Origin: Shigella phage vB_SdyM_006
Sequence record: MK295204
DNA length: 64,000 nucleotides
Reading direction: 5' to 3' (one strand)
Part shown: one piece after another, positions 6,519-23,022 of the stretch
Numbering within the stretch: position 1 is the stretch's first letter
How the letters are laid out: each line of letters opens with the position of its first letter
Notes under the pieces: model-generated
Told to the model about the DNA's origin: nothing
Databases searched by the model: none
The model's input: the letters and a program-made list of their open reading frames with translations, nothing else
Position numbers and translations under genes: made by a program

Positions 6519-6716
6519 TTATTTTACCTCAATAATAGTGAGTTCAGTATCTTCTGTCAAATCACAAAAGTCAAAAGCCAATGCAGCAATACCTGGGTAT
6601 TCTGATTCGTCAATAATACATTCAGTATTATTATTTTTGATGTCTAAGGCTAATTGATAATTAGACGTAGTAAATCCAAGTTCAAGTTCTTCGCACCATA
6701 CGGTATACTTTTTCAT
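6519..6716 (-). CDS. small protein, tandem paralog A (65 aa)
   Basis: Begins MKKYTVWCEE, ends TIIEVK; paralog of adjacent gene. Confidence 0.55.
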   Translation of the reverse strand: MKKYTVWCEELELGFTTSNYQLALDIKNNNTECIIDESEYPGIAALAFDFCDLTEDTELTIIEVK

Positions 6717-6911
6717 TTATTTTACCTCAATGAGTTCACAATCGTATAAACAACTACACAGTTCACAAAAAGAATAAGCCGATGCATATGAATCAGTGTC
6801 TATCCAAAACCCAAGATTATCAATAGCACCTTTACGAACTTCATAAGCAAGTTGATAATCAACTGTTTCAAATCCAATTTTCTTTTCTTCGCACCATACT
6901 ATATATTTCAT
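6717..6911 (-). CDS. small protein, tandem paralog B (64 aa)
   Basis: Begins MKYIVWCEE, ends ELIEVK; abuts paralog A. Confidence 0.55.
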   Translation of the reverse strand: MKYIVWCEEKKIGFETVDYQLAYEVRKGAIDNLGFWIDTDSYASAYSFCELCSCLYDCELIEVK

Positions 6912-7756
6912 GAGTATTCCTTGTCATAATAAGAATCTGGAGTAAAAATATTTAACATATTTGTAGAATTATCAATAGTAATAATATTTTCCTGTTCAAC
7001 TTCAGGTGTATAATATTTTAAAAACTCTTCTTTAACGTATTTTACTGGATCACTTTTATAATCGTCAGTAGAAATATCAAATAATTCAATTGTATACGTA
7101 TCAAGCCATTTTTCAGAACATGTTAATCGTCCACATAATAATCCATCATAAACGATAGCATATTCAATATGGCCCCATTTATATGAGCTATCAGCGTCGT
7201 GTCTGATTAGATAAAACTTAATATCAGAATTCTCACAATCATCACTAATATTGTCACGAACATCGTATTCATTGAGCTCGGTCAATTCACTTAAAGCATT
7301 AATAAACAGGTTTTTATATTGAGGGCCAGTTACTAACTTATCTTCTGTTAGTTCTTTCTCAATAAATTCTTTTAAAGTTAAAACTGGCAATTCATACTTA
7401 GGAAATAATGCAGTTTCAGTAATAGTGCCGATATTCAATTCGGCCAATTTCTTAATAACAGAATCTTCAGCTTTATCAGAATCAGTCCAAATATGAAGAA
7501 CTTTAAAATTATGATTATTCCAAATTTTTTGTGGGTCAACATCAATCACATCTTGGGTTTTAGACAAAAACATTAAAAGGTAATCAGAATCATTCCACCC
7601 TACTGGGTTTTCGTATTTTTGAATGACTAGATATTGGAAATCAGTCATTAATGCATTATATCTTTCTTTAGAAGCTAAAGAAGTAGAATCCATAGATGAA
7701 GAAAAAGCTTCAATAACACTAGCTGGGTTTTTAATTAACATTTTGAATAGTCCCAT
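6908..7756 (-). CDS. hypothetical protein (282 aa)
   Basis: ORF with ATG; ATGA overlap with downstream gene. Confidence 0.55.
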   Translation of the reverse strand: MGLFKMLIKNPASVIEAFSSSMDSTSLASKERYNALMTDFQYLVIQKYENPVGWNDSDYLLMFLSKTQDVIDVDPQKIWNNHNFKVLHIWTDSDKAEDSVIKKLAELNIGTITETALFPKYELPVLTLKEFIEKELTEDKLVTGPQYKNLFINALSELTELNEYDVRDNISDDCENSDIKFYLIRHDADSSYKWGHIEYAIVYDGLLCGRLTCSEKWLDTYTIELFDISTDDYKSDPVKYVKEEFLKYYTPEVEQENIITIDNSTNMLNIFTPDSYYDKEYS

Positions 7757-7977
7757 GTGATTTTAACACGATCATGATATATTACTCTATCATGGCTTTT
7801 TGAAACTGTAAATCCTTTTTCTTTAAGAATTTCAATCAACGCATCTTTAATGGCTTCATTTTCTGGAAGCTTTGCGTAATGCTCTGTACTATCATGCAAA
7901 GCCAGTTGGCAAATATCATTTAACACAATAGCTAAATTGTGTTCAACAACAGTATTTTTAAGATCAGATAAATTCAT
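7735..7977 (-). CDS. hypothetical protein (80 aa), first gene of leftward accessory operon
   Basis: ORF with ATG; candidate GTTTAC promoter upstream. Confidence 0.5.
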   Translation of the reverse strand: MNLSDLKNTVVEHNLAIVLNDICQLALHDSTEHYAKLPENEAIKDALIEILKEKGFTVSKSHDRVIYHDRVKITWDYSKC

Positions 7978-8010
7978 ATTATTCTCACAGTTGCGAATTG
8001 ATGATGTGTA

Positions 8011-8039
8011 TACTATATTATAAAATAGTGTTTGTAAAC
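8011..8039 (-). promoter_or_regulatory. candidate early promoter for leftward accessory operon
   Basis: Minus strand GTTTAC, 16 nt spacer, TATAGT. Confidence 0.35.
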
Positions 8040-8062
8040 ATCTAAAATAATTTAAAATAAAT

Positions 8063-8091
8063 GTTTACTTTTGCTGTCATTATGATATTAT
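8063..8091 (+). promoter_or_regulatory. T4-type early promoter, copy 1 of repeated promoter/5'UTR cassette
   Basis: GTTTAC (8063-8068), 17 nt, TATTAT (8086-8091); followed by conserved leader ending GGAGTATATTATG. Confidence 0.6.
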
Positions 8092-8133
8092 ATACATATT
8101 GAAACGAAACATGAAAAACAAATGGAGTATATT

Positions 8134-8478
8134 ATGAATAAGACACAAATCAATGCAGTTTTAAAAACTTTAGGTTATGGTAATTTACGTTATTCTAATG
8201 GTAAAACATACCGCAGAGGAAACTCTATGGTTAAAGGTTTTCATTTAATTTCTACTGGTGCATGTATGGTGACTTCACCAGAAACACAAAAATTTAGTGA
8301 TCTTGTTAATGAGTTAAAACAACATTTTGAATTACAATCATATTATGACAATTGCATGGCAATATTTGTGACAGGAAAATTAAAAATTGTTGTTTGTTTA
8401 ACAAATTTTAATACATACGGTGGCTTAAACCCAGATTATAAAACATGGTTTGCATCTGTTAATATTGAAAAGTTATAA
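8134..8478 (+). CDS. hypothetical protein (114 aa), rightward moron-like gene
   Basis: ATG at 8134 preceded by GGAG; opposite orientation to neighbours; own promoter and terminator. Confidence 0.55.
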   Translation: MNKTQINAVLKTLGYGNLRYSNGKTYRRGNSMVKGFHLISTGACMVTSPETQKFSDLVNELKQHFELQSYYDNCMAIFVTGKLKIVVCLTNFNTYGGLNPDYKTWFASVNIEKL

Positions 8479-8481
8479 AAC

Positions 8482-8509
8482 AAAAATGGGACCGTAAGGT
8501 CCCATTTTC
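8482..8509. terminator. bidirectional intrinsic terminator
   Basis: AAAAA, stem ATGGGACC, loop GTAA, stem GGTCCCAT, TTTT; between 8134..8478 (+) and gp54 (-). Confidence 0.6.
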
Positions 8510-9422
8510 AAATTAATCTTGTTACAGCTCCTATTCCTCCTCCAGCACCACCTAATCTTGTTAAATTTCTTAATGAAGAGCTTAAAGAGTTTTCTTCTGA
8601 AATTGTATCTATGGCACCAATTGCTTTTGATTCTAACCAATCAAGAGCTGCTTGCCTACCGACAGAACCTACCTGCATCACCCTGTATGCGAATGTAACA
8701 TCAAAAACAGCAATAGTATTATTATCTTCATATGAAAGTTCAGGAGCACCTACCGACATAGGAACACACCCTGTGAACATGGCAACAGTATGTGGAAGAC
8801 CGTTTCTATTGTGTAAATTAACCTGGATATCGGCTTCAACATCTATAGGTAAAGCACGTAGTCCTGTGATTGGGTCTTCAACTGAATTCACCCAATCTTG
8901 CATAGCTCGATAATTACTTGCTTCTGAATCCATCCTAAACGAAATTATCAACGGGTCATATTCTCTAGATAGAACTTTTATATTAGGTGAATTATGATTT
9001 TTATCCATCTCATAAGATAGTCTGTTTTCTGGTAATTTGACAGAATAAACCATTAACCCAGATGTTGGAAATGCCATATTAAAGAAATCTAATAGATAAG
9101 TCCCTACTTCAAATTCTCCTAATAATGATTGAACCACACGATTAGACATGGCTCCTAAAAGATATTTAGAAACACCAGATTTTCTCACTAGTTTTTGAGT
9201 ACCAGCAACAACTAGACTTGATACTGCACTAGTTACATCATTTTGAGATATTCCAAGAAAATCTGTATCTATAGGTAAATTGTTAAACAAAAAACCACCA
9301 AAATTATCTAAAAGCTCATTAGTTTTTGATGATGGGGCTGTGGCAAAAACAACACTAAACATGTTTGTTCTTTGGAAGTCAAGATTGACAGCTTGGCTTT
9401 TAAATTCTTCTAATGTATACAT
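8508..9422 (-). CDS. 54: baseplate tail-tube initiator gp54-like
   Basis: 304 aa; position and size fit T4 gene order 29-48-54. Confidence 0.65.
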   Translation of the reverse strand: MYTLEEFKSQAVNLDFQRTNMFSVVFATAPSSKTNELLDNFGGFLFNNLPIDTDFLGISQNDVTSAVSSLVVAGTQKLVRKSGVSKYLLGAMSNRVVQSLLGEFEVGTYLLDFFNMAFPTSGLMVYSVKLPENRLSYEMDKNHNSPNIKVLSREYDPLIISFRMDSEASNYRAMQDWVNSVEDPITGLRALPIDVEADIQVNLHNRNGLPHTVAMFTGCVPMSVGAPELSYEDNNTIAVFDVTFAYRVMQVGSVGRQAALDWLESKAIGAIDTISEENSLSSSLRNLTRLGGAGGGIGAVTRLI

Positions 9423-10465
9423 TATAACAATCCTTCTGCAAACAAAGTTCCACGATTTAGTGTTAAAATCTCTCTAAACGTTATTTCAAGAGTAAACGTA
9501 CTTGGTAAATTTGGGGCCATGGCTAGACCATTAAAATGTCCATTAGGAGATTTGTCAAATCTTATACTAGAAATCTGGGCTGGTCCAAATATATCAGTTC
9601 GGCCATCATAAGAAGATGTTTTACCAAAATTTCGTATAACCCATATTGTTGGGTTACTTACAACAAGAACATTAGTTAAAAAACTTGTAATATTTTCCAA
9701 TATTGTTCCTGAAGTATCAGCACCGTCTGGGGTATTAGGATTTATTAATGTTGTTTTATACCATTCATCAATAGCGGCTTTAATTTCTTTAGCAAATTTA
9801 GACACACCTGTTTCACCATAAGAGAAATAACTAAATATTTCGTAAATATACAAAATTTGTATAAGGTCTTGTGGAGTCCTTGGTGTTAAATGCCAGGTAA
9901 AAACTTTAGTTCTATTATCCGCTCCAGCATACATAGATCTAGCTGTAGTATAAATTTGTTCGCCTTTATCAGCCATAATTCCTTGTGTAATCGAATCTAA
10001 TGCACCAAAAACAGCCGTTGACGCAACATTACTCAAAGCACCTGTTACGCTACCACCACCTTTAGTTAATAAAGAATCTCCAACATCATTAAATCTATGA
10101 GAAATGTTATCTACGTCAGATTGACTTCTTGGCATTAATATATTAGCAACAGATTCTTGACTAAAGGTGGTTGTCCCACCTTTTTTAGAAAAATCAATAT
10201 TAATTGCGTCAACGGCATTTTGTTTTTTTCTAAAGTCTCTTAATGAGCCTGTATCGCGTGCATTATAATTATATGCAGTAAATAACAGCCCGTTTTTATA
10301 TAAGTCATTAAGTCTAAAATCTAAAGCATTATCTGTACCAGAGGCTCGTTCTGCTGGAAACTGAGCCACTAATGTTTTGGTTTGAGTATTTGTTGGATTA
10401 GAAGACCCAGCAGATATTTTTGTTCCTATTTTCTCTACTTCTTCATCCAGAACTTTTATTTTCAT
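9422..10465 (-). CDS. 48: baseplate tail-tube cap gp48-like
   Basis: 347 aa; synteny between gp29 and gp54. Confidence 0.65.
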   Translation of the reverse strand: MKIKVLDEEVEKIGTKISAGSSNPTNTQTKTLVAQFPAERASGTDNALDFRLNDLYKNGLLFTAYNYNARDTGSLRDFRKKQNAVDAINIDFSKKGGTTTFSQESVANILMPRSQSDVDNISHRFNDVGDSLLTKGGGSVTGALSNVASTAVFGALDSITQGIMADKGEQIYTTARSMYAGADNRTKVFTWHLTPRTPQDLIQILYIYEIFSYFSYGETGVSKFAKEIKAAIDEWYKTTLINPNTPDGADTSGTILENITSFLTNVLVVSNPTIWVIRNFGKTSSYDGRTDIFGPAQISSIRFDKSPNGHFNGLAMAPNLPSTFTLEITFREILTLNRGTLFAEGLL

Positions 10466-12186
10466 TAATTAACCTCTAAAGCTTTATACATGCCAGGAGC
10501 AGCATATCCTGTTACAGGATTTTGTTGAATAACAGTCTTATTATTAGCTACATTGTTTTGGACATTAGCTGTATTTGTGGTCGTTTGAGATGATGTTTCT
10601 GTTGTTTCTATATTATTGATATTTTCTGCACTTGTGTAAGCTTGAGATTCTTTAGGATCTTCAGGTTTAATAGATGGGATCTGCTCTAATAACAAATCTG
10701 ATCTATCTAATGCATCTATTCCTAATTTATAATAATCCGAATCGACTTCAACATCTTGGTTATCAACAATAGAACTTGCAAGTTCTCTTAATTCGCCAGC
10801 TATTTTAGTTAAAGCCTCTGGGTTATTTCTATGAGCTTCAGATAAGGCCATTAATTGATTTAATCTAGCTTCAGTTTTTACTTGTTCTTCTATATCGCCC
10901 ATTTCTGGTGCAGATTCATCTTGCTTTTTAGCTAAAGCAATAGCCCTATCAGCATCTTCTCTACTTATAACATTATTTTTTACATAAGTGTTTGCAGCTT
11001 CTTCTATAGACCCACCTGTAAATCTTGCTCTAGCTTTTATCATTGATAAATAGCCTTCATCATCACTTTTGGCGGTATTTCTAATGTCGTTACCACGAAC
11101 TTTAGCCATTAACTTAAGTTCATCTTCGTTAGGCATATAACCTGTATTTTTATTATATGCTTCTATAGTTGCAACTTCTAATTCGTCAGCCCAGTCGTCC
11201 TGCCCTATAGCTCGTAATAATGAAGATAACATTTTTCCTAATGCGTACTGTAAGCCTTGTAAAAGATTTTCTAAAACGTTTACCATACCTTTTACAATGG
11301 CTAATGCTAAATTACCAAAATCGCCTTCTTTCCAGAATTTTTTGACATCTTCTAGTGTAGCAAATATAGAACGCAATATCGGGGCTAGTGGTCCAAGTTT
11401 TTCTTCAAAATCGTCAAAGGCTTCATTAAATAATTTACCCCAATATTTAAAATGAATCATTATAAGGTCCATAGCTAATACTATAGCCAACATTATTGCT
11501 GCCCATTTGGCAGCAAACAACGCCGCTGTTACAGTGTATTTAAACAACATATCAGCTATTCTGTTTGTCATCCCATAAGCAGATTTGAACCCAGTTTTAA
11601 CATTTTTATTTAAAGAATTTAAAACTTTAGATAAAGAGTCTTTTTCTTTATTGTCATCTTTAGGTTCTTTCTTTTTCTTCTCTTCTTCTGGGACCGGTGC
11701 TCTATCGACGTCATCTCTTCTAATAACAAGGTCTTTAATAGCAGATTCTAGTTTATTATCTTCAACCGGAACAGGGAGTTTAGAAAAAGCTTCTTCGGTC
11801 TCAGAAACTTCTGGTTCTACAATTTCCTGTTTTTCTGGTTTAAATTTTTCTTTTAACATATTACTTAATTTAGATATGTTCGAAGAAAAAGAATTTGATA
11901 ATTTAGAATTACTTGTTGCTAAGTCTTTTAAGTTATTATTTGTTTCTTGACTAGAATCTATTAATAACTCAACACCAGCTTGAACATCTTCTACAGAAGA
12001 AACAACTTTAGAAGTCCCAGATTCTACGGTTTCTGCAACTAGCTCAATACCATTTGATAAGTCATCTAAAGAATCAGAAACATTAAGCATAGAGTTAGCA
12101 ACATTTTCTTGGCCTTTAGATTCTTTAGATATTTTATTTTTTTCTTCTATTACTTTATTTCTTCTAAACGAATCAGGTGTTTTCAT
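10465..12186 (-). CDS. 29: baseplate hub / tail length determinator gp29-like
   Basis: 573 aa (T4 gp29 about 590 aa); synteny. Confidence 0.65.
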   Translation of the reverse strand: MKTPDSFRRNKVIEEKNKISKESKGQENVANSMLNVSDSLDDLSNGIELVAETVESGTSKVVSSVEDVQAGVELLIDSSQETNNNLKDLATSNSKLSNSFSSNISKLSNMLKEKFKPEKQEIVEPEVSETEEAFSKLPVPVEDNKLESAIKDLVIRRDDVDRAPVPEEEKKKKEPKDDNKEKDSLSKVLNSLNKNVKTGFKSAYGMTNRIADMLFKYTVTAALFAAKWAAIMLAIVLAMDLIMIHFKYWGKLFNEAFDDFEEKLGPLAPILRSIFATLEDVKKFWKEGDFGNLALAIVKGMVNVLENLLQGLQYALGKMLSSLLRAIGQDDWADELEVATIEAYNKNTGYMPNEDELKLMAKVRGNDIRNTAKSDDEGYLSMIKARARFTGGSIEEAANTYVKNNVISREDADRAIALAKKQDESAPEMGDIEEQVKTEARLNQLMALSEAHRNNPEALTKIAGELRELASSIVDNQDVEVDSDYYKLGIDALDRSDLLLEQIPSIKPEDPKESQAYTSAENINNIETTETSSQTTTNTANVQNNVANNKTVIQQNPVTGYAAPGMYKALEVN

Positions 12187-12691
12187 TTTGGAATAATCCT
12201 AATATGTCGTCGCCATAAACAACTTTGTCTTCAAGGTTTATAGCAATACTTTTTCCAAGTTCATCAGCCCATTTATACACAAAAGCTGGCATACTACCAA
12301 AATCAACTTTTTCTAAACATAATGTTTCTAAAAGTTCTTTAGCTGAAGTGAATCTTTCTCCTGGTAATATGTCTCTAAATTTATATTCTTTTCCTTGATA
12401 AGTAAATTTAGGTGTTGGTAATAGATAAACATCATTTATTGAGTAAGTTTTATCTTTATATACGAATGTGTCTGTACATTTACCATTAAATTCGGCTAAA
12501 TGAAGCAAGACTAAATGAGCTTCTTTAAATGACAAATTTTTATCTACAGAATCAAGAACTATTTTTAAAGTATCTTCTGGAGATTTAGCTTCTTTGAATT
12601 TGTCATAATAATTAAGTCCGAGTTTAGGAATTGTTAATTCTTTTCCATTTATATTAATCTTCTTCAGTGGAAGAATTATCTTTAATTTCAT
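12173..12691 (-). CDS. 28: baseplate hub distal subunit gp28-like
   Basis: 172 aa; synteny. Confidence 0.6.
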   Translation of the reverse strand: MKLKIILPLKKININGKELTIPKLGLNYYDKFKEAKSPEDTLKIVLDSVDKNLSFKEAHLVLLHLAEFNGKCTDTFVYKDKTYSINDVYLLPTPKFTYQGKEYKFRDILPGERFTSAKELLETLCLEKVDFGSMPAFVYKWADELGKSIAINLEDKVVYGDDILGLFQNENT

Positions 12692-13799
12692 TTTTTACCT
12701 TAATATGATCTACTGGTTTAAGAATTTTACTATTACTGAACATGTAAATATGTGTAAAACTCTGATTATTAGACATTTCATGTATAACAGAATCTACATA
12801 AAAAGTACTTAAGAACTGATTCTTAGGGTCATAGAATTCTAATTTATTTCCAGGCGTTATATCAAAATCCCCATAAGTTGTACATTTTGCATAGGAATCA
12901 TATTGAGCCATTGTATTTAATTTAGTCGCTTCTTCATACCCATTTCTAAATAACTGATCTGAATACCCGCCATTTCTCGAAACTAAAATAGAATTTTCGC
13001 CATTTCCATTCACTATCCTAGTACAAGTTTTATCAATCATACTAAAAGAATATATAGTCGAGTTTTCGTATGGGTTTCTATTATGAGAATTTGTTTTTGT
13101 TATCCATTCAAAATCATATGCAAGTGGATATTCAAGTTGATCTGCAAATTGTCCAACCATTAACGGTTCTCCGACTACCATTTCCTTAACTTTTGAATTA
13201 ATGATTTGTTGGAAATCTGTGACGTGGATCCCATTAAAATCATCCCAAACCAAAGCAAACATATCAGATGCAACAGAAATACCAGTATCTCTAACATAGT
13301 CCATATATTCCTTAATTCCAAGAACCCATGGAACTAAAGGAACGTGAATATTCGTGCCAGTGATCGTAGGTTTCAATAAAGGGGTGTCGGTATATAAAAC
13401 ATTTATCATTTCTTCTATAGTCTCTGTGGCGTTCTTGAAGAACACTCGACTAAATTTAAGATTTTTATTTTTATACGGTGGAATCAATTGCATTGTAATA
13501 ATGTTATCGCCTTTTTGATCAACTGATACAGAAGAATATTTTACGGCATAAATTCTATTTTTAGTTATTGATGTATTTGCATTACCTACAGAAATTTGGA
13601 TTATTTGGTCTCCATCTAATTTAGTATGCATATTTTTATGATCGTAAATTTGTAACATCCCTTCGTTGGTCCCGTATAAATCATCTCTAATTGTCAACGA
13701 AGTAAAAGTTCCTGCTAATTCTATAAATCGGTTTTCTAACCAAGCATCATAACTTTGGTATAATTTTATCGATATATTAGGATAACCCACCTTTTGCAT
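12654..13799 (-). CDS. 27: baseplate hub subunit gp27-like
   Basis: 381 aa (T4 gp27 391 aa); synteny. Confidence 0.65.
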   Translation of the reverse strand: MQKVGYPNISIKLYQSYDAWLENRFIELAGTFTSLTIRDDLYGTNEGMLQIYDHKNMHTKLDGDQIIQISVGNANTSITKNRIYAVKYSSVSVDQKGDNIITMQLIPPYKNKNLKFSRVFFKNATETIEEMINVLYTDTPLLKPTITGTNIHVPLVPWVLGIKEYMDYVRDTGISVASDMFALVWDDFNGIHVTDFQQIINSKVKEMVVGEPLMVGQFADQLEYPLAYDFEWITKTNSHNRNPYENSTIYSFSMIDKTCTRIVNGNGENSILVSRNGGYSDQLFRNGYEEATKLNTMAQYDSYAKCTTYGDFDITPGNKLEFYDPKNQFLSTFYVDSVIHEMSNNQSFTHIYMFSNSKILKPVDHIKVKNEIKDNSSTEED

Positions 13800-14550
13800 G
13801 TTTTTTGTCCTTTAAATCTTTTTCTATTAATGCTAATGTGATTGTCCTGTTCATTGGGGTCATTTTCTCTATATCGTTTAGAGAATAGCCTTGTTTAACC
13901 ATGATATGATTAATTTTATAAAATGCTATAATTTCCTCTTCAGACAAAATTATTTTAAACAGGTCTAAAATGTTTCTATATACCATTTCGTGAGTATCAC
14001 AACAACTAAATTTAACAGGGATATAAATTGGATATATCTCTTTTATTATTTGTTCAAAATCATCTAGAGAAATAACAGACATAACAAGATTTTTATTCTC
14101 TTGGTCTAAATCTTCCCATATATAAGAACCATTATTGTCTTCAATTTTATATATACAGCTGTCAAATAATTTTTTTATATCAGTTGTCATTATATCTGTA
14201 AAATCAAAATGAATTTTTATTCCTGAAGTTTCTAGAACAGGTCTTTTAAGTCTTTTCAATTCTAAGTTTAAAAAGGTCTTCTTTTCTTTACCACATTTAG
14301 GGCATTTAAAACGTATAGGAAGAACAGATTTACCAATAGATGAAGTAAACCAAATTATAAATGCATAAGCTCTATATATTTTTGGCATATAAGGAAATGA
14401 CTCTTCTAATAATTCATCTAGTATTTGTTCTGCTTCTTCTTGATTTTTTTCTATTTCACTCCGTACAAATAATAATTGTAAATAATCATCATTAGTAAAC
14501 TGACGAATTCTGTATGTTTTTTCTGGTGTGACTATTCTTATTATGTTCAT
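13777..14550 (-). CDS. 51: baseplate hub assembly catalyst gp51-like
   Basis: 257 aa; first gene of leftward late operon; TATAAATA upstream. Confidence 0.6.
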   Translation of the reverse strand: MNIIRIVTPEKTYRIRQFTNDDYLQLLFVRSEIEKNQEEAEQILDELLEESFPYMPKIYRAYAFIIWFTSSIGKSVLPIRFKCPKCGKEKKTFLNLELKRLKRPVLETSGIKIHFDFTDIMTTDIKKLFDSCIYKIEDNNGSYIWEDLDQENKNLVMSVISLDDFEQIIKEIYPIYIPVKFSCCDTHEMVYRNILDLFKIILSEEEIIAFYKINHIMVKQGYSLNDIEKMTPMNRTITLALIEKDLKDKKHAKGGLS

Positions 14551-14566
14551 AGTGTCTCCTCTTATT

Positions 14567-14574
14567 TATTTATA
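14567..14574 (-). promoter_or_regulatory. late promoter TATAAATA for gp51 operon
   Basis: Exact TATAAATA on minus strand, 17 nt from gp51 ATG. Confidence 0.6.
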
Positions 14575-14578
14575 AATA
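14571..14578 (+). promoter_or_regulatory. late promoter TATAAATA for gp26-gp25
   Basis: Exact TATAAATA on plus strand, 18 nt before gp26 ATG; overlaps minus-strand copy. Confidence 0.6.
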
Positions 14579-14595
14579 GATAAAAAGGAGACACT

Positions 14596-15180
14596 ATGTT
14601 TGAAATAACATGTAACGACATAACATACAACGCTAGATATTTCACTCTAGACGAATACGAGGACGTTCTTAATAAAATAACTGATAATAATATTAAAGAC
14701 GCCATTAGTGGGCTCTTAATTGATTGTATAGACTCCTACGATACAAACTTGCCTAAACACTATGCAGAATGTATTTTTCTTAAATTATGGGCTCACAGTT
14801 TAGGTGGAGTAACTAAAGAACTAAATGATATTTTTGTTAATTTTAATTATATAGAAACACCTAAAGAAAAAGGATTTATTTACAAATTAGATGGATTGAG
14901 TCTCAAAATGAGATATCCAAAATTATTTGAAGACTCTGATAAATTAGAAATGGTCATAAATTGTATTGACTCAGTATTATTAGAAGACCAAACAGAAATT
15001 AAAGCTTCAGAGCTTTCTTCAGATGATTTAAACGTTTTATATTCATACTTGACGAAAGACGTAATTTTTTCGTTAAGAGACGAATTACTTAGACCTAAAC
15101 CGTATATCGCTTTTCCTGTTGATGACGAAATTAAAACAATAGAAGGGTTTAAAAATTTATTAGAGGTGATAGATGAGTAA
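14596..15180 (+). CDS. 26: baseplate hub subunit gp26-like
   Basis: 194 aa; AGGAG RBS; directly upstream of gp25. Confidence 0.65.
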   Translation: MFEITCNDITYNARYFTLDEYEDVLNKITDNNIKDAISGLLIDCIDSYDTNLPKHYAECIFLKLWAHSLGGVTKELNDIFVNFNYIETPKEKGFIYKLDGLSLKMRYPKLFEDSDKLEMVINCIDSVLLEDQTEIKASELSSDDLNVLYSYLTKDVIFSLRDELLRPKPYIAFPVDDEIKTIEGFKNLLEVIDE

Positions 15181-15559
15181 AATGAATGTTTTATATTCTG
15201 ACTTAGACCCTAAAATGGAAAAAGGCTGGGATAAAGACCTGCATAAAGTCGTAGGAGATAGGGCTGTCAAAAATTCTATTCTAGGAATAATTAGTACTAG
15301 GAAAGGGTCTAGACCCTTTGACCCAGAATTTGGGTGTAATATAACAGACCAATTATTCGAAAATATGAGTCCATTAATAGAAGACACTATAGAGCGATCT
15401 ATAGTTTCGGCTATTAAAAATTATGAGCCAAGAGTACAAAGATTAAAAGTTTCTGTTACTGCATTGTATGATTCAAATTCTATAGTTGTAGATATTATTT
15501 TTTCTATTGTAGATAATCCAGACACATTAGAACAGATAAAAGTTCAATTATCAAAATAG
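15173..15559 (+). CDS. 25: baseplate wedge protein gp25
   Basis: 128 aa; motif TRKGSRPFDPEFGC and overall co-linearity with T4 gp25. Confidence 0.9.
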   Translation: MSKMNVLYSDLDPKMEKGWDKDLHKVVGDRAVKNSILGIISTRKGSRPFDPEFGCNITDQLFENMSPLIEDTIERSIVSAIKNYEPRVQRLKVSVTALYDSNSIVVDIIFSIVDNPDTLEQIKVQLSK

Positions 15560-15760
15560 TTTACTATAGTTATTAATTTATTACTTAATAGTTATATATA
15601 ATATATAAAGAACTTAATAAAATAATAAAAATTCTGGAGCTGCGCTCCAGATTTCTTTAGAAATAGTAACATATAGTTATTAATTTATTACTTAATAGTT
15701 ATATAGAATATACTATACTTTTAATAAATTAATTTACTAGAGTTACTATTAATAGGCTAT
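15560..15760. repeat. AT-rich intergenic repeat region, copy 1
   Basis: Two copies of ATAGTTATTAATTTATTACTTAATAGTTATATA (from 15566 and 15673); about 85 bp near-identical to 52358..52441. Confidence 0.8.
15634..15650 (+). terminator. hairpin inside repeat region
   Basis: Stem CTGGAGC, loop TGC, stem GCTCCAG, then ATTTCTTT. Confidence 0.5.
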
Positions 15761-15798
15761 TATAATAAAATGGTTATAATGAATCATTTGGAGGAACT

Positions 15799-16209
15799 AT
15801 GAATTTAGAAGAATTACAAACAATGTTATCAGAAGATTTAAGAATTGATCCATTAAAACTTCAATATGAAGCTGCAAATAATCCAACATTATATGGAAAA
15901 TGGTTAAAAATTTATTCTGATATAAAGAAAGGAATTATTTCTTATGAAGCTAATAAGAAAAAACTTTTAAAACAAAGATTAGACCATTATACTGGACGTG
16001 GTGATGAAGTGTGTATGGACTTATATGAAAAATCAGAACTTAAAACTGTTATTGCAGCTGACCCAGAAATTTTGAAAACACAAACATCTGTGGAATATAG
16101 AACATTATTATTGGATTTTGCATCAAAAGCTTTAGATGCTATTAAAGCCCGTGGATTTAGTATTAAGCACATTCTAGAATGTAGACAATTTGAGGCAGGA
16201 ACAAAATGA
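15799..16209 (+). CDS. uvsY: recombination mediator UvsY
   Basis: 136 aa; KLQYEAANN and LLDFxSxALDAIKxRGFxIKHI match T4 UvsY. Confidence 0.9.
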   Translation: MNLEELQTMLSEDLRIDPLKLQYEAANNPTLYGKWLKIYSDIKKGIISYEANKKKLLKQRLDHYTGRGDEVCMDLYEKSELKTVIAADPEILKTQTSVEYRTLLLDFASKALDAIKARGFSIKHILECRQFEAGTK

Positions 16210-16577
16210 CAAGCATTGATGTATTGAATCAACAGATTGATTTAGCTTCTTCAATTGAAGGAATTACTGACAAAACTCCTGTAATAAAATCAATGAAACA
16301 CTATTTAAGAGATATAAATAATATTAAGCCAATGGCTGAAGGTATACTTAAAAGTAATAAATTACCTGATTATACATTATCTCAAATCATTGAAGAACTA
16401 AAAGGATGGGCTATGGACCATATTTGTGTAGTTTGTAAAAAGCCTATTGATGAGAGTTTAGTTATCTATAACGATAATAATGAACCTGTTCATCCGGGGC
16501 CTTGTTATAATTTTGCTAAAGAACAACCTGTAACAGAATCAGGTCATTCTTTAAATGAAGTAGAATTATTAATGTAA
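16206..16577 (+). CDS. hypothetical Cys-rich protein downstream of uvsY
   Basis: 123 aa; CVVCKK...HPGPCY suggests zinc ribbon. Confidence 0.5.
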   Translation: MTSIDVLNQQIDLASSIEGITDKTPVIKSMKHYLRDINNIKPMAEGILKSNKLPDYTLSQIIEELKGWAMDHICVVCKKPIDESLVIYNDNNEPVHPGPCYNFAKEQPVTESGHSLNEVELLM

Positions 16578-16583
16578 AAAATA

Positions 16584-16609
16584 AAAGACGAGGGTTACTC
16601 GTCTTTTTC
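16584..16609. terminator. bidirectional terminator
   Basis: Stem AAAGACGAG, loop GGTTAC, stem CTCGTCTTT, flanked by A- and T-runs. Confidence 0.55.
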
Positions 16610-16816
16610 TGTTTCTAAATCTTCTAATTCTAATCTCTTGCCTTCTAAGGCATCTCTTATAGAGATATCATCAGTATCTTTAATTTCTAATTCTTTTATA
16701 CGTTTAGAATAATATTTTTCTAATTCGTCTAAACCAGCCAATGTTTGACATTCTCTTATTTTGTTCATAAAAGTTTCGACACTAGCTTCGATTAAAATAT
16801 CTTTAAATTTTAACAT
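16595..16816 (-). CDS. UvsW.1-like small protein
   Basis: 73 aa directly downstream of uvsW. Confidence 0.5.
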   Translation of the reverse strand: MLKFKDILIEASVETFMNKIRECQTLAGLDELEKYYSKRIKELEIKDTDDISIRDALEGKRLELEDLETEKDE

Positions 16817-18315
16817 AATTTTACCTCTCTCATAGAATAATCAAATTGTTCACTTGCATACCTTTCTATACGTTCTAAAGCGTGTTTTAATGCATAATTT
16901 AAATGTACATATTTCTTTTTAGAATTTTTAGATTTAGGTTTTACACCCATGTCATCTACAATGTCCCAAAGAACACCTTCAGCTTTAGAACCATGTAATC
17001 TAAGAACACGTCCAATAGATTGTAATACGGTTACTTTTGATTTAATTGGGTGTGCAAATATAACATGGTGTAAATTTTTTATAGATACACCAGCACTGAA
17101 AACACCATAAGAAGCGACTACAACCATCCCTGAGCGTTTTTCTGCTAAGGCCTTTATAATATCTCTATCTTTGTCTTTAACTTCTCCTGCGATAAAGAAG
17201 ACGTTTTCTTCGCCATATATAGCCTTACATGCCTCGTATAGATCTTTACCATGGGCTATTCTATCAAACATAACAAACACATTTTCATTTTTAGATGCTA
17301 ATTTACATGCAAGTTTAGCTATCCATTCATTACGCTGTTTAGCTTTAATAATGATTTTAATTTCATCTTGATACGAAAATCCTTTAACTTTTTCTGTAAA
17401 CGCATCCGGGTATCTTAAAAACAAAGTATTAATTTTAAGTTTAGACACTTGTCCTGCTTCCATTAGTTCAGCCGTGGACACTGGTTTGTATATATCTCCA
17501 AATAATCCGATATATTGCATTACATTAGCTTTGCCATCTTTAACGGTTCCTGTTAGCCCGAATTTAAATTTACAGTTGTTTAATCCGTTAATAATAGTAC
17601 TAATACTTTTACCAGTCGCTAAATGACACTCATCATTCATTAACATTCCAAATTGACTAAACCATTCTTTTGGTTGCTTAATAGCTGTCTGCCAGGTTGA
17701 TACGTAAACCAAAGCATCAGAATCTTTAGCTGTACCGCCTTTTATTCCTAATAACATTTCTTTAGAAAATAGTCTATAGTCGACTAAGTCATCAATCATT
17801 TGTTTAACAAGAATAGTTGTTGGAACTAAAATTAAAACTTTACCTTGAAAGTTTTCTATATAATAACGTGCTAAGAGCGCCTGGATCAACGATTTACCAG
17901 CTGATGTAGGTAAATTCAATAAAGCTCTATTTTGTGTTAAGCCTTTAACTACAGAATCTTTTTGATACCAATGAGGCGTTATCTTAGATGACCCAGAATA
18001 TATTTCTTTAGAATCTATCCAATCAGAAACTTCTTTTTCAGTAATATCGCCATTATCATATATTTTAGGATCCGTTTCTACAGTATAGTCCATATTAGAA
18101 GCAAACTTTTTAACATAGTTCACAAGCCCGTATGGTAATAAGCCGTCATACCCTAAAATTCTAATCTTGCCGTCCCATTGACCATATTTAAATTTTGGAT
18201 TAAATTGGTACCCAGGAGTTTCGAAAGAGAAATAATCTCTTAATTCAAAGAACACAGAATCTTCACACTCGATTTTTACACTACTATAATCGTAAAACTT
18301 TAATTTAATATCCAT
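16810..18315 (-). CDS. uvsW: DNA/RNA helicase UvsW
   Basis: Strong co-linearity with T4 UvsW from MDIKLKFYDYS; helicase motifs LNLPTSAGKS and DECH; track ORF has 13-codon extension, start placed at MDIK. Confidence 0.9.
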   Translation of the reverse strand: MDIKLKFYDYSSVKIECEDSVFFELRDYFSFETPGYQFNPKFKYGQWDGKIRILGYDGLLPYGLVNYVKKFASNMDYTVETDPKIYDNGDITEKEVSDWIDSKEIYSGSSKITPHWYQKDSVVKGLTQNRALLNLPTSAGKSLIQALLARYYIENFQGKVLILVPTTILVKQMIDDLVDYRLFSKEMLLGIKGGTAKDSDALVYVSTWQTAIKQPKEWFSQFGMLMNDECHLATGKSISTIINGLNNCKFKFGLTGTVKDGKANVMQYIGLFGDIYKPVSTAELMEAGQVSKLKINTLFLRYPDAFTEKVKGFSYQDEIKIIIKAKQRNEWIAKLACKLASKNENVFVMFDRIAHGKDLYEACKAIYGEENVFFIAGEVKDKDRDIIKALAEKRSGMVVVASYGVFSAGVSIKNLHHVIFAHPIKSKVTVLQSIGRVLRLHGSKAEGVLWDIVDDMGVKPKSKNSKKKYVHLNYALKHALERIERYASEQFDYSMREVKLC

Positions 18316-18329
18316 TACTTTCACCTTGT

Positions 18330-18337
18330 TATAAATA
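18330..18337 (+). promoter_or_regulatory. late promoter TATAAATA for inh-like/hoc
   Basis: Exact TATAAATA 33 nt before ATG at 18371. Confidence 0.5.
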
Positions 18338-18343
18338 CATATA

Positions 18344-18351
18344 TATTTATA
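18344..18351 (-). promoter_or_regulatory. late promoter TATAAATA upstream of uvsW
   Basis: Exact TATAAATA on minus strand about 29 nt before uvsW ATG. Confidence 0.45.
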
Positions 18352-18370
18352 CAAAGCCTAAGAGGACATT

Positions 18371-19084
18371 ATGAAAATTGATCAACAATATATTGATTCT
18401 TTAACTGAAGAATATACTTCAGGCGAAATTGATAGAAAAACAGCTAAACAAAAATTAACAGATTATGCTAAAGAATCTTTTAATTTTGATTTAAACAAAC
18501 AAAAAAGTTTTGAGAATATGATTGTTCAGCTTAAAGAAATGATCGATAATTATGTAGAACCCGAATTAGAAGAACAAGATGGAATTTCTATTAAAGATCT
18601 AATTACCGCAGCTGACCAATTAGATGGTAAAAGTGTTTTTAATGATGCCAATGAAGAAGCATTAGAATTACTTTCAGATGTTTCTTATGATGGAATTAAA
18701 CCAGATTTGGTAATTAAAACACCCCAACCACAAATTACTAAAGAAGAAATTATTGATAAACCAGAAAAATCTTTAATAAGTAAGAATTTAGAAGTTAAAG
18801 AAGAAATTAAATCCCAAGAATATATGCCGGAATCGGCAAAATATGTTCTTCCTGATGGGTTCTCTCCAACTATTACATTAATTGGTAAAACTCCTGGATA
18901 TTATACTCTTCCATGGTGGATTTATCAATGGATTTTAGAAAATGAAGATTGGAAAGATAGGCCAGAAGAATGCCCCGAGTATTCAGCTATTAATATTTTA
19001 AAATCATTGATTTACTTTATTAATAGAGATGGACAGGTCAAAATTAGAGAAACAAGAAATTCAAGATTTTATACCCTAAAATAA
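18371..19084 (+). CDS. acidic protein at the inh position
   Basis: 237 aa (T4 Inh 226 aa); position immediately upstream of hoc; no sequence confirmation. Confidence 0.4.
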   Translation: MKIDQQYIDSLTEEYTSGEIDRKTAKQKLTDYAKESFNFDLNKQKSFENMIVQLKEMIDNYVEPELEEQDGISIKDLITAADQLDGKSVFNDANEEALELLSDVSYDGIKPDLVIKTPQPQITKEEIIDKPEKSLISKNLEVKEEIKSQEYMPESAKYVLPDGFSPTITLIGKTPGYYTLPWWIYQWILENEDWKDRPEECPEYSAINILKSLIYFINRDGQVKIRETRNSRFYTLK

Positions 19085-19093
19085 GGATTATAT

Positions 19094-19918
19094 ATGAGTA
19101 TAGTACTAAAATTAACACCAGAGAACCCTAAAATTACTATAGGAGAATCTCAAGAATTCACCATGACTACAGAGAATCAAACAGATGAGACTCTAAAATA
19201 TGAATGGTATATTAATGAAGACATATATGAAGCCACAAATAAAAATATGACATATACACCTGATAAATCAGGTGAATTTATTATAAAATGTAAAGTATCT
19301 TCTTTAGGATTAGAAGGGGAAACCGTTTTAGGCGAAGAATCCACCACTTTAACTGTAAATCTTAAAACTATAACCGATTTGACGACAAATATTACAGGCC
19401 CAAAAGAAGCAGAATATGGCGAAGAATTTGAACTTGTTGTAAATGCTGAAACTACAGCAGAATCTCCTAAATATACATATAAATGGTCTAGTGGTGAAAC
19501 TACAAAAAAAATAAAGGTAATTGAATCTGAAGAAGGTGAAAAAACTTTTACATGTACAGTAACATGTAAATCAACTAATTATGAACCCGCTACTTCAACA
19601 TCAGAACATAAAGTTTCTATATCAAAACCCGTAGTTCCTGAACCAGATCCGTCTTGTGAATCATGTAGATATATTCATCCTTTAGACCATAGAGAATCAG
19701 CATATTTATGGGTAGGATACTGGGTACTAGAAGAAATAGAAAAAGCCGTGGAAGAAGGAATTGATTGGAAGAAGCCAGATGATACTGATCTAAAATATAA
19801 ATGTGATTTGAAGACCCTCGCATTTATGTTAGAAAAATACCCTAATGTAGATGTACAAGAATCAAGAAATGGATATATCTTATCTAAAGACGATATTGAA
19901 AATGGGGTTATTTACTAA
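19094..19918 (+). CDS. hoc: outer capsid protein Hoc (two Ig-like domains plus capsid-binding C-terminus)
   Basis: C-terminus HPLDHRESAYLW...DVQESRNGYI matches T4 Hoc; two Ig-like repeats rather than three. Confidence 0.85.
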   Translation: MSIVLKLTPENPKITIGESQEFTMTTENQTDETLKYEWYINEDIYEATNKNMTYTPDKSGEFIIKCKVSSLGLEGETVLGEESTTLTVNLKTITDLTTNITGPKEAEYGEEFELVVNAETTAESPKYTYKWSSGETTKKIKVIESEEGEKTFTCTVTCKSTNYEPATSTSEHKVSISKPVVPEPDPSCESCRYIHPLDHRESAYLWVGYWVLEEIEKAVEEGIDWKKPDDTDLKYKCDLKTLAFMLEKYPNVDVQESRNGYILSKDDIENGVIY

Positions 19919-19920
19919 AC

Positions 19921-19947
19921 AAAAAAGGGACCAATTGGTCCCTTTTT
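19921..19947. terminator. bidirectional terminator after hoc
   Basis: AAAAAA, stem GGGACC, loop AATT, stem GGTCCC, TTTTT. Confidence 0.6.
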
Positions 19948-19951
19948 ATTT

Positions 19952-20221
19952 TTATTTTCTAAAGATCTTACCAAATTTGCTAATCACAAAATTCTCACCA
20001 ACTTTAATATCGATACGAATAGAAACATGTCCTATTGTATCAGTATTCAACATATCACTTAAAGACATTGAAGAATGTCTTTCGAAATCTTCAACAATAT
20101 TAAACCCATCATTATCACAATGAGTGTCAATAAATTCTTTAAGCTTTACTGAGCTTCCTTCAGATAAAATAGGGTCATTATAGAAACGACAAGATGATTC
20201 AAATAATTTTAAAGTAACCAT
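19952..20221 (-). CDS. hypothetical protein (89 aa)
   Basis: Track start is TTG at 20281; ATG at 20221 has AAGGAG RBS. Confidence 0.5.
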   Translation of the reverse strand: MVTLKLFESSCRFYNDPILSEGSSVKLKEFIDTHCDNDGFNIVEDFERHSSMSLSDMLNTDTIGHVSIRIDIKVGENFVISKFGKIFRK

Positions 20222-20281
20222 GATATTCTCCTTTGTTGTTGATGTAAGTATAGTAACACTACACAAAGGAGATGTAAACAA

Positions 20282-22345
20282 TTAAATAATAAATTTTTCT
20301 GGGACAAAAGTAAGATCAACAGCTGTTGATAATAATTCTAGCCCTTTTTGACTAATTTTACCAGTATTTTCTTTTAAGAATTCTTTAAACCCAATTTTTT
20401 CGATTTTTCCTTCAGATAAAAACTTATTTCCGTCAATAAGTTCGCTTTCATCTAGTAATTCTGGATCCACTACAGATGTTTCTACTAATATTGGTCTATT
20501 AAATTCTATATCACGAGCGTTTTCATAACCGTGGATAGAATGAATCTTAAGAGCTAAACCTCTAGGTAAAATCACCTCGCATTCACTAGAGTATTTTGAC
20601 ATATTACCAGGAATAATAACATTGACTTTATGTGCACCTTTAATAGTTATACCCATAGAAATGTTAATATCTGTTTTCTTAGTTGCTTTCTTACCATTAA
20701 CGGCTACACCAATATTTTTTGGTGTCATAACTGTTGATATAACATCATCGAATGTTTCGGATTCAAAAGTTACTGTAGTCGCGTTAGGTTTAATATTATC
20801 AAGAACATCATTTCGTTCCCCAAAAATAATTGGAGCTAATGAAGTCGAAATATAATTAGGAAAATATAATGTTTTATTTTTAGCAGCTTTTTCTACGTCG
20901 GCATAAGGTAATTTTTGTGCTCTATATAAAATAGTTCCTTTTTCTAACTTGGTTCCTTTTTTGAAGGCCCCATCTAAGACAGGAATTTTGTTTTCATACA
21001 CAGATTTTAAACTTTTATCTTTACCAAGCAAAAAGTCGTTCATTTCTTCATATCCACGTAAAGCATAATCTGTGATAACTTTTCGCTCTTCTTCTGTTAA
21101 ATCCATTTCTGTTTCGGTTCTAAATAACTCTTCTAAAGGAGTATAGAAAACATTTCTGTTTAAAGCAGAGATACAGCCTCTTAAAGCTCTAGTCTTAGCC
21201 ACATTATCGTCAGGTCCATATGTTTCTAAATCTTCGGCTATTTTTTTGTAAACATCCATAGCATTATTAGAAGTTTTGAGCGCATTGTTAATTATCAATA
21301 TATACGGTTTTGCTAATTTATATTTTTCTTCACTAGATAAATGATAAAAATTTTCAACACCATACCCAGATATGCGTTCTAAAGAATCTAATAAAAATCT
21401 AGCTTCTAGATCTGATTCTTCTTCACTCACGGCCGAATTTATTTTATCTAAAAACACAGATTTAGATTCATCAATTTTATTAAGGACATTTTTATGAACT
21501 AATGCAATTTTTGTAGAATCACTTTGGACAATAGGAGGATTATCTTGTAGTTCAATATATTTTCTTCTTCCTTCTTCAGAATAATTTTCTAAGTCTTCTG
21601 GTTTAGAAACACCATACATTGCTGATAATAATTCACGTCTAGAAACTTTAGTTTTTGAAATGACAGATCGTTCACTTCTTGTGTTTTCTTGTGCTGCAAT
21701 ACTTCCTGCAATGGCTTCTAATTTAGACACTTGCTTGCCAGTTTTGTCATTGATATACACATCACCTACTTTAGAATCGACTTTAGTATATAAGTCAGAA
21801 TCAATACCAGGAATCCCAGCGATGTCTTCTAAAGGTCTGTTTTTACGATATATTAAAACATAAGCATGTTTACCTGTAAATTGATACAAATCTTCTAAGA
21901 CAACAAATTTACCACCAGTACGTTGCATAGCCAGACGTTTGATTATTCTTTGTAATGTCTTTTCTTGGCCTTTCATTTTTTTAGCAGGGAATCTAAATAA
22001 AACTGCGTCCATTTTAAGTTTTTTAACTTGTTCGTATACAGTGTCAAAAATAGTATTCAATGCCCCAATAGGGTCTGAGCCTAAACCATTTCTTAATTCT
22101 GCTGCATTACCATTTTTAGACAAACTCATCAAAAACACTTGAACAAATTTATCACCTTGCTTTACTGCTTTTAATGCATCGCCTTTAGATAAATAAGACA
22201 CCATTCTAACTAAAAGATTGTCATTTCCAGGAACACTGACATTCCATAATTGAGGGACCTTAGCCCTTTTATTAAGATTAATAGCTTTATATTGAGCTAT
22301 TTCTGAATCAAAAACCTCATTTAAATTAATTTCATTTAATTCCAT
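20282..22345 (-). CDS. alt: ADP-ribosyltransferase Alt
   Basis: 687 aa (T4 Alt 682 aa); R-S-E type motifs YRAQ, YISTS, ECEVILPRG; late promoter upstream. Confidence 0.85.
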   Translation of the reverse strand: MELNEINLNEVFDSEIAQYKAINLNKRAKVPQLWNVSVPGNDNLLVRMVSYLSKGDALKAVKQGDKFVQVFLMSLSKNGNAAELRNGLGSDPIGALNTIFDTVYEQVKKLKMDAVLFRFPAKKMKGQEKTLQRIIKRLAMQRTGGKFVVLEDLYQFTGKHAYVLIYRKNRPLEDIAGIPGIDSDLYTKVDSKVGDVYINDKTGKQVSKLEAIAGSIAAQENTRSERSVISKTKVSRRELLSAMYGVSKPEDLENYSEEGRRKYIELQDNPPIVQSDSTKIALVHKNVLNKIDESKSVFLDKINSAVSEEESDLEARFLLDSLERISGYGVENFYHLSSEEKYKLAKPYILIINNALKTSNNAMDVYKKIAEDLETYGPDDNVAKTRALRGCISALNRNVFYTPLEELFRTETEMDLTEEERKVITDYALRGYEEMNDFLLGKDKSLKSVYENKIPVLDGAFKKGTKLEKGTILYRAQKLPYADVEKAAKNKTLYFPNYISTSLAPIIFGERNDVLDNIKPNATTVTFESETFDDVISTVMTPKNIGVAVNGKKATKKTDINISMGITIKGAHKVNVIIPGNMSKYSSECEVILPRGLALKIHSIHGYENARDIEFNRPILVETSVVDPELLDESELIDGNKFLSEGKIEKIGFKEFLKENTGKISQKGLELLSTAVDLTFVPEKFII

Positions 22346-22375
22346 TTTATCACCTTTATAATAAGAATATATTAC

Positions 22376-22383
22376 TATTTATA
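22376..22383 (-). promoter_or_regulatory. late promoter TATAAATA for alt
   Basis: Exact TATAAATA on minus strand about 30 nt before alt ATG. Confidence 0.55.
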
Positions 22384-22387
22384 CCAA

Positions 22388-22410: not shown

Positions 22411-22425
22411 TTTTATATTATTTAT

Positions 22426-22635: not shown

Positions 22636-22675
22636 AATATACTCCGTTGTTTCCGTGTGTTGTTTCAATATGTAT

Positions 22676-23017: not shown

Positions 23018-23022
23018 AAAGT

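Follow-up and report, generated by a model that had tools for sequence, protein, structure and literature searches.

Inversion of the gene 54-to-hoc block, with stem-loop terminators at both breakpoints, in Shigella phage vB_SdyM_006 and its presence in other T4-like phages of the Morganellaceae group

Is the gene cluster that extends from hoc to gene 54 in phage T4 turned around in Shigella phage vB_SdyM_006 and, if so, how widely is the inverted order shared and by what route could it have arisen? The question is posed by a 64 kb stretch of sequence record MK295204, hereafter the window, which represents 38% of the ~168 kb genome. A preliminary description of this DNA, which relied on an assumed T4 gene order, had presented the hoc-to-54 block as exactly reversed between conserved flanks (24/rnlB on the left and alt/30 on the right), while allowing that the assumed order might be wrong and that T4 might have the same orientation. 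As we show here, the inversion is real and exact, and it is very probably a single, ancient and fixed event that was inherited by all of the T4-like phages of Morganellaceae hosts that were examined and is not specific to the window. It should be emphasized that the inversion is already known, having been published in 2017 for this phage group: Oliveira et al. (Sci Rep 7:46157, PMC5384007) reported an inversion of >10 kb in the baseplate-hub/outer-capsid cluster of Morganella phage vB_MmoM_MP1 and Proteus phage Pm5461. There is no mention of it in either the Pm5461 paper or the PSTCR6 paper. Our additions to the report of Oliveira et al. are small, comprising the breakpoints at the level of individual genes, three further carriers (PSTCR6, PSTRCR_121 and Rgz1), the terminal stem-loops and an insertion at 8122-8478.

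Gene identities were assigned by tblastn of the window open reading frames (ORFs) against positions 100000-130000 of the T4 record, NC_000866. The T4 order that had been assumed (24, rnlB ... hoc ... 54, alt, 30) agrees with this record, and the orientation of the block in T4 is opposite to that in the window. With the strand given after each gene, T4 reads 23+, segD-, 24+, rnlB-, 24.2-, 24.3-, hoc-, inh-, segE+, uvsW+, uvsY.-2-, uvsY.-1-, uvsY-, 25-, 26-, 51+, 27+, 28+, 29+, 48+, 54+, alt.-3-, alt.-2-, alt.-1-, alt-, alt.1- and 30-. The block in the window reads 54-, 48-, 29-, 28-, 27-, 51-, 26+, 25+, uvsY+, uvsY.-2-like+, uvsW.1-, uvsW-, inh+ and hoc+. Every gene from hoc to 54 is therefore flipped in both order and strand, a result on which the T4 annotation and tblastn agree and which is confirmed by the order of marker genes. 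Both the left flank (23, 24, rnlB and the 24.2-like gene) and the right flank (alt and 30) retain the T4 polarity, as shown by tblastn for 23, 24, rnlB, alt and 30. The inverted segment extends from 8508, the stop of gene 54, to 19918, the stop of hoc, and thus spans 11.4 kb of genes for the tail and baseplate, for repair and for head decoration, or positions 8483-19947 when the hairpins at its ends are included (Table 1).

Table 1. Positions of the genes and regulatory features of the inverted block and its flanks (percentages are identities to the T4 protein or gene named; E, expectation value).
Feature	Position	Strand	Remarks
gp23, left flank	12-1244	+	tblastn to T4
gene 24 (capsid vertex), left flank	1363-2613	+	49% to T4 gp24, E 7e-116; annotated as capsid vertex protein in phiP4-3
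rnlB (RNA ligase 2), left flank	3678-4682	-	43% to T4 rnlB, E 1e-81
24.2-like small gene, last of left flank	7735-7977	-	BLASTP Pm5461 gp201 (E 4e-9), MP1 gp209 (E 3e-4); phrog_8208
divergent promoter-like spacer	7978-8121		GTTTAC at 8034-8039 (-) and 8063-8068 (+)
sigma-70-like site TTTACA-17-TAGTAT	8038-8010	-	flanking-gene promoter-like
sigma-70-like site TTTACT-16-TATTAT	8064-8091	+	flanking-gene promoter-like
small gene at left junction, phrog_13016, ORFan-type	8122-8478	+	not in ancestral inversion
left breakpoint stem-loop terminator AAAATGGGACC-GTAA-GGTCCCATTTT	8483-8508		after gene 54, shared with convergent ORF 8122
gene 54 (tail tube initiator), first of inverted block	8508-9422	-	68% to T4 gp54, E 5e-127
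gene 48 (baseplate tail tube cap)	9422-10465	-	60% to T4 gp48
gene 29 (hub subunit/tail length determinator)	10465-12186	-	33% to T4 gp29, E 6e-44
gene 28 (hub distal subunit)	12173-12691	-	38% to T4 gp28
gene 27 (baseplate hub)	12654-13799	-	55% to T4 gp27, E 4e-147
gene 51 (hub assembly catalyst)	13777-14550	-	34% to T4 gp51, E 6e-47
late promoter pair TATAAATA, between 51 and 26	14567-14578		14567 (-) for 51-54, 14571 (+) for 26-25
gene 26 (baseplate hub)	14596-15180	+	27% to T4 gp26, E 8e-25
gene 25 (baseplate wedge)	15173-15559	+	59% to T4 gp25
uvsY	15799-16209	+	60% to T4 UvsY
uvsY.-2-like, 123 aa	16206-16577	+	C-terminal 54 aa 61% to T4 uvsY.-2; phrog_26998, phrog_1043
internal hairpin AAAAGACGAG-GGTTA-CTCGTCTTTT	16583-16607		separates convergent uvsY and uvsW units
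uvsW.1 (C-terminal helicase piece)	16595-16816	-	67% to 3' part of T4 uvsW
uvsW helicase	16810-18354	-	61% to T4 UvsW
late promoter pair TATAAATA, between uvsW and inh	18330-18351		18330 (+) for inh-hoc, 18344 (-) for uvsW
inh (prohead protease inhibitor)	18371-19084	+	42% to T4 Inh, E 8e-45
hoc (head outer capsid protein), last of inverted block	19094-19918	+	34% to T4 Hoc, E 2e-43
right breakpoint bidirectional terminator, perfect palindrome AAAAAGGGACC-AATT-GGTCCCTTTTT	19922-19947		after hoc
small gene at T4 alt.-3 position, phrog_25116, outside inversion	19952-20221	-	relatives Pm5461 gp185, PSTCR6 QPB12400, MP1 gp190
early-promoter-like site TTTACA-17-TACTAT with TG	20250-20279	-	GTTTAC 20274-20279; for the 19952-20221 gene
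alt (ADP-ribosyltransferase), right flank	20282-22345	-	30% to T4 Alt over 735 aa, E 5e-85
gene 30 (DNA ligase), right flank	23179-24651	-	44% to T4 gp30, E 9e-109

The inverted order is shared by a defined group of phages. Megablast of window positions 6000-24000 against a phage collection identified Proteus T4-like phages of the genus Bragavirus, family Straboviridae, to which the window itself belongs: phiP4-3 displays 98.8% identity in the pieces that align, SJ_PmiM 94.8% identity over 86% of the query, and both Pm5461 and PM2 ~85% identity. The match to phiP4-3 is patchy, covering 54% of the 18 kb in three pieces with the remainder under the sensitivity of megablast, which suggests mosaic exchange among Bragavirus genomes. 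Marker-gene order was compared across 32 loci. The inverted arrangement was found in phiP4-3, Pm5461, PSTCR6 (Providencia), MP1 (Morganella), Rgz1 (Morganella) and PSTRCR_121 (Providencia), so that the carriers comprise the Proteus Bragavirus phages, the Morganella and Providencia phages of Gualtarvirus and the Providencia phage PSTCR6. Marker order in Pm5461 and MP1 is identical to that in the window, with 54 at the rnlB/24 side and hoc at the alt/30 side, and megablast showed SJ_PmiM and PM2 to be collinear with the window across the junction between hoc and alt. The T4 order is kept in 25 loci, namely T4, Yersinia phage phiR1-RT, Klebsiella phage Metamorpho, Erwinia phage Cronus and 21 loci from IMG/VR. 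The IMG/VR scan, which was seeded with gp54, returned 24 loci; in 21 of these 54 is followed by alt and 30, and the remaining three, in which 54 is followed by 24.2/rnlB/24, are phiP4-3, Pm5461 and MP1, so that no new uncultivated member of the inverted clade was present among them. In a neighbour-joining tree of concatenated gp27, gp48 and gp54 the inverted genomes form one clade, with T4-order lineages on several surrounding branches. The combination of a single clade and 25 loci in T4 order points to a single old event that became fixed, and the simplest reading is that one inversion occurred in the common ancestor of the Morganellaceae T4-like phages. The layout of PSTCR6 fits well with this: a 24.3 homologue (E 6e-8 to T4 24.3; 6e-17 to Metamorpho_091) directly adjoins gene 54, which is exactly the arrangement predicted by a clean inversion of the T4 order.

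At both breakpoints the spacer is filled by a strong hairpin, as folding of the sequence revealed, in keeping with the proposal in the preliminary description that bidirectional terminators are located there. The folding energies are -17.8 (minus strand) and -17.3 (plus strand) kcal/mol for the left hairpin, with a z-score of about -5.4, and -16.6 and -17.0 kcal/mol for the right hairpin, the z-scores of the two ranging from -4.2 to -5.4 on either strand. The right hairpin occupies the 33 nt that separate the stop of hoc from the stop of the small gene at 19952-20221. The left breakpoint had been placed at about 8480-8510; the interval of 19920-20280 proposed for the right one extended too far, as the junction lies at about 19920-19950 and the segment ends before 20281. 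A search for repeats shared by the breakpoints, recommended at the same time, was rewarded, since the two junction hairpins are alike, with 78% identity over 36 nt and a local alignment score of 41 against a maximum of 26 for shuffled sequences. Indeed the pattern GGGACC-N{3,8}-GGTCCC has only two sites in 64 kb (expected 0.00), which are the two breakpoints (core GGGACC-N4-GGTCCC), and when the listed hairpin loci of the window are compared two by two, we count the same inner 6 bp of stem in only 6 of 406 pairs. A search for long inverted repeats between the junctions returned, besides the hairpins, only AT-rich matches of 70-75% identity.

The promoters fared differently from the terminators. 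GTTTAC promoter elements had also been assigned to the breakpoints, but they lie 300-450 nt away with a whole ORF between each and its breakpoint: ~445 nt separate the left hairpin from the minus-strand promoter (8038-8010), with ORF 8122-8478 between them, and ~300 nt separate the right hairpin from its promoter (20278-20250), with ORF 19952-20221 between them. The motif itself is only mildly enriched, with 50 sites in the window against 36.9 ± 6.6 expected, and the similarity of the two promoter regions is no greater than that of shuffled sequences. Recombination between promoter cassettes is thus unsupported, and of the suggestion that the block was turned by recombination between regulatory cassettes only the part that concerns the stem-loops survives, as a reasonable but unproven proposal.

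The transcription layout of the block bears on how such a change could be tolerated. Exact T4-type late promoters (TATAAATA) form two overlapping divergent pairs within it and are annotated at the same places in Pm5461. Judged from these signals, the block is shown to be a self-contained late module of four predicted transcription units, arranged as two back-to-back pairs, each on its own divergent late promoters. Genes 54 and hoc, at the two ends, point away from the block, and a stem-loop terminator follows each of them. Both ends of the module are thereby alike, consisting of a 3' end and a terminator, such that a flip would part no gene from its promoter or terminator and would only exchange the late units that lie toward alt and toward rnlB. 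The inversion may have been tolerated because the module is symmetrical and every gene keeps its promoter and terminator, and the rearrangement was probably close to neutral.

How the block came to be turned is less certain. T4-order phages have G-rich stem-loops at both of the homologous sites, T4 itself carrying GGGGACC-GAAA-GGTCC after gene 54 and AAGGGGC-CGAA-GCCCCTT after hoc. Because a palindrome reads as its own inverted repeat, recombination between two hairpins of this kind would turn around the DNA between them and leave a hairpin at either end. It is possible, and we put this forward tentatively, that the two G-rich, palindromic terminator stem-loops at the ends of the block in T4-order phages recombined with each other and so produced the inversion. 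The confinement of the right breakpoint to the 33-nt spacer between hoc and the small ORF, filled by the hairpin, supports this route, although the argument is weakened because the identification of 19952-20221 as an alt.-3 orthologue is unproven. Also in its favour are the likeness and rarity of the two junction hairpins, the left junction of MP1, where a GTTTAC early promoter comes directly after a stem-loop, and the exchanges mapped inside the stem-loop in RB49 (PMC2839356). It could equally be argued, with what we judge to be an even chance of being correct, that the breakpoints reflect selection only: an unrelated illegitimate event would have survived since two short 3'-end spacers spare the essential late genes and their promoters, and the likeness of the hairpins in Bragavirus would represent convergence on a common terminator design. 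Because the block contains essential baseplate genes, selection alone would place viable breakpoints in these 3'-end spacers, and in a genome as compact as this the spacers at both ends are essentially hairpin. The hairpin design, moreover, is generic, as AAWGGGACC-N4-GGTCCCWTT occurs in at least 120 unrelated IMG/VR contigs; repeated terminator families are present elsewhere in the window; and the junction hairpins of two other carriers are dissimilar, those of MP1 being unlike each other (GGACC versus GGGAACC) and PSTCR6 having no hairpin after gene 54. Since MP1 and PSTCR6 share the inversion but do not have matching hairpins at their two junctions, the match seen in Bragavirus is not simply a relic of the original event. 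All of these points weigh against recombination between the stem-loops, as does the fact that the neutrality of the flip is something that we infer. Selection as the whole explanation has to contend, however, with the coincidence between the junctions and the sole two GGGACC-N4-GGTCCC sites in 64 kb, with the precedent for exchange inside the stem-loops of T4-type regulatory cassettes, and with the T4-order phages in which paired stem-loops stand at both sites. In the three Bragavirus genomes that were examined the stems of the junction hairpins are identical and the loops vary freely. The nearly identical palindromic terminators of Bragavirus could themselves be a recombination substrate rather than tolerated scars, with stems that may stay alike through continuing exchange and perhaps low-level flipping, a reading that we regard as unlikely. 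The identical stems with their variable loops could also be taken to indicate an active invertible segment, whose near-identical palindromic ends recombine repeatedly so that both isomers are present in populations. This we consider highly improbable, as all the isolates examined, from independent laboratories, were assembled in one orientation, no recombinase-like ORF was found in or beside the block (the ORFs encode T4 homologues or small proteins without assigned function) and the arms shared by the hairpins are only ~11 bp.

The opposite polarity, in which the inverted order is ancestral and T4 and the other T-even phages are derived, derives some room from the tree, which is midpoint-rooted only, and from the deeper outgroups, whose layouts differ and are unable to polarise the change. 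It is nevertheless improbable. The T4 order occupies several deep branches on either side of the inverted clade, the inverted order is confined to that one compact clade, and the same pattern is reported across the Tevenvirinae genus prototypes (Oliveira et al., PMC5384007); the gp27, gp48 and gp54 tree also suggests that the clade of Morganellaceae phages is nested inside T4-order lineages. RB43 and Vibrio phage nt-1 were considered as polarising outgroups and rejected, as their hub genes are arranged differently again. In RB43 gene 30 is followed by 27(-), 28, 29-like, 48, 54, 51, 26 and 25, and in nt-1 genes 54 and 26 lie beside genes 2, 4, 3, 53 and 5. The T4 order is thus conserved only among closer T-even relatives, and the cluster is not immutable deeper in the Straboviridae. 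Finally, the inversion could have been an assembly or orientation artefact of this sequence. Both junctions, however, are continuous sequence in the window, both flanks have the T4 polarity, and the same junctions recur in genomes from Portugal, China, Israel and the USA that were sequenced independently, which excludes an artefact.

A smaller rearrangement was observed in another lineage. In Metamorpho (Jiaodavirus, otherwise in T4 order; locus 27106-29007) hoc alone is flipped with respect to inh, with bidirectional terminators annotated between both, so that the same end of the block has undergone a further and smaller inversion there.

The small genes at the two junctions have different histories. 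The gene at 8122-8478 is absent from the left junction of PSTCR6 and MP1, and is for this reason viewed as a later insertion: in Bragavirus only, an unrelated gene entered the left junction after the inversion, where it separates the terminator of gene 54 from the early promoter of the 24.2-like gene. Its homologues were found only in Bragavirus (phiP4-3, SJ_PmiM, Pm5461 and PM2) and in ~150-160 kb phages of Salmonella, Escherichia and Klebsiella, which are presumably Ackermannviridae-like. The product in the window and phiP4-3 displays 47-49% identity to those of SJ_PmiM, Pm5461 and PM2, the value for the adjoining gp54 being 94-98%, and the gene looks like a swapped or fast-evolving cassette. 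In MP1, reading along the gene 54 strand, the stop of 54 is followed by the stem-loop AAGGACC-TTCG-GGTCCTT, a GTTTAC early promoter and small early genes. The assignment of 7735-7977 as 24.2-like draws on its C-terminal EGF/GY...ITF/ISW motif, which by eye resembles T4 24.2 and Metamorpho_093. At the right junction, the listed ORF 19952-20281 is over-extended from a TTG; a Shine-Dalgarno sequence and an ATG give 19952-20221, which matches the 270-nt coding sequence (CDS) annotated at the same position in phiP4-3. As this gene has a Shine-Dalgarno sequence and an ATG of its own and is preceded by a promoter-like site, it is assigned, on these predicted signals, to the alt side. Its relatives in Pm5461, PSTCR6 and MP1 occupy the same position, but comparison of the gene and these relatives with an alt.-3 profile gave an hhalign probability of 2% (E 0.025), so that homology is not demonstrated and the equivalence is one of position only. 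The possibility that alt.-3 was carried along with the inversion was rejected, as 8122-8478 returned nothing against the alt.-3 profile and 19952-20221 only the 2% given above.

Several further features of the region deserve mention. The Hoc of the window, at 274 aa, is the same length as that of phiP4-3, compared with 359 aa in Pm5461 and 376 aa in T4; it aligns to the C-terminal part of T4 Hoc, and ~85-100 N-terminal residues are apparently absent in this lineage, which we take to correspond to about one immunoglobulin-like domain. The product of 16206-16577 is apparently a longer or fused version of that of the small T4 uvsY.-2 gene. The true start of uvsW is probably within the listed ORF, as the CDS in phiP4-3 is 1506 nt. 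The spacer between 25 and uvsY is unusually long and contains two 73-nt direct repeats (15554-15733), 107 nt apart and 82% identical with an identical 27-nt core, between which sits a hairpin (15633-15651). This spacer corresponds in position to the T4 replication origin oriF(uvsY), the orientation of which would be flipped by the inversion. Outside the block, 6519-6716 and 6717-6911 (both on the minus strand) are neighbouring small paralogues (43% identity, E 1e-10) that form a tandemly duplicated pair in the variable stretch from rnlB to the junction. Stem-loops with recurring stems occur in the early regions: AAGGAGAC-CGAA/CGGA-GTCTCCTT is present three times (22389-22408, 26974-26993 and 27318-27337) and AAGGAGC-ACAAG-GCTCCTT twice (58946-58964 and 59902-59920). 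These recurrent identical-stem terminators are candidate regulatory cassettes of the promoter-early stem-loop (PeSL) type.

The T4-like phages of Proteus, Providencia and Morganella are cleanly united by the inversion as a synapomorphy, which makes it useful in taxonomy and in the verification of assemblies; viewed in this way it is an ordinary lineage marker of little importance beyond bookkeeping. It also indicates that the conserved T-even core is open to rearrangement when a module is transcriptionally self-contained. Of wider interest is the question of whether the terminator stem-loops through which T4-type phages are known to exchange small cassettes could also bring about inversions of core genes on a large scale.

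When set beside systems that have been described previously, the inversion in the window and that reported by Oliveira et al. in MP1 and Pm5461 involve the same 54-to-hoc block, flanks and clade, and differ in nothing essential. Similar to the G segment of Mu with Gin and the C segment of P1 with Cin, the segment is bounded by short inverted sequences and is found in opposite orientation. In contrast with systems of the Gin/Cin/Hin type, no serine invertase gene adjoins the block, as all the ORFs in or beside it encode T4 homologues or belong to small PHROGs; the orientation is the same, and thus fixed, in all members of the clade that were examined, with no sign of two isomers; and the block consists of essential late genes rather than alternative tail-fibre exons as in Mu G and P1 C. 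The closer comparison is with the PeSL cassettes that mediate modular shuffling in T4-type phages (Arbiol et al. 2010, PMC2839356; Comeau et al. 2014, PMC4122927). In RB49 the exchanges were mapped within the stem-loop (PMC2839356), and stem-loop exchange in these cassettes is documented for both RB49 and phi1 (PMC2839356; PMC4122927). According to these reports the exchanges insert, delete or replace small ORFans in hyperplastic regions (PMC2839356; PMC4122927), and Arbiol et al. nowhere use the word 'inversion' (PMC2839356). As in PeSL systems, the rearranged DNA of the window has stem-loop terminators and sigma-70-like early promoters with GTTTAC on its flanks, and at the left junction of MP1 the stem-loop and early promoter are contiguous. 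Unlike a PeSL, which is a composite element, the promoter and stem-loop at each junction of the window are not adjacent, and are separated by a whole ORF. With regard to the repetition of motifs that characterizes PeSLs, the hairpins are two copies of one core within the 38% of the genome that the window represents, and the promoter parts are not similar. Different too is the DNA that was moved, an 11.4 kb block of core genes that was inverted rather than a set of small ORFans. If the inversion did indeed proceed through the stem-loops, PeSL-type exchange would extend from the shuffling of small ORFans to the inversion of an 11 kb core-gene module.

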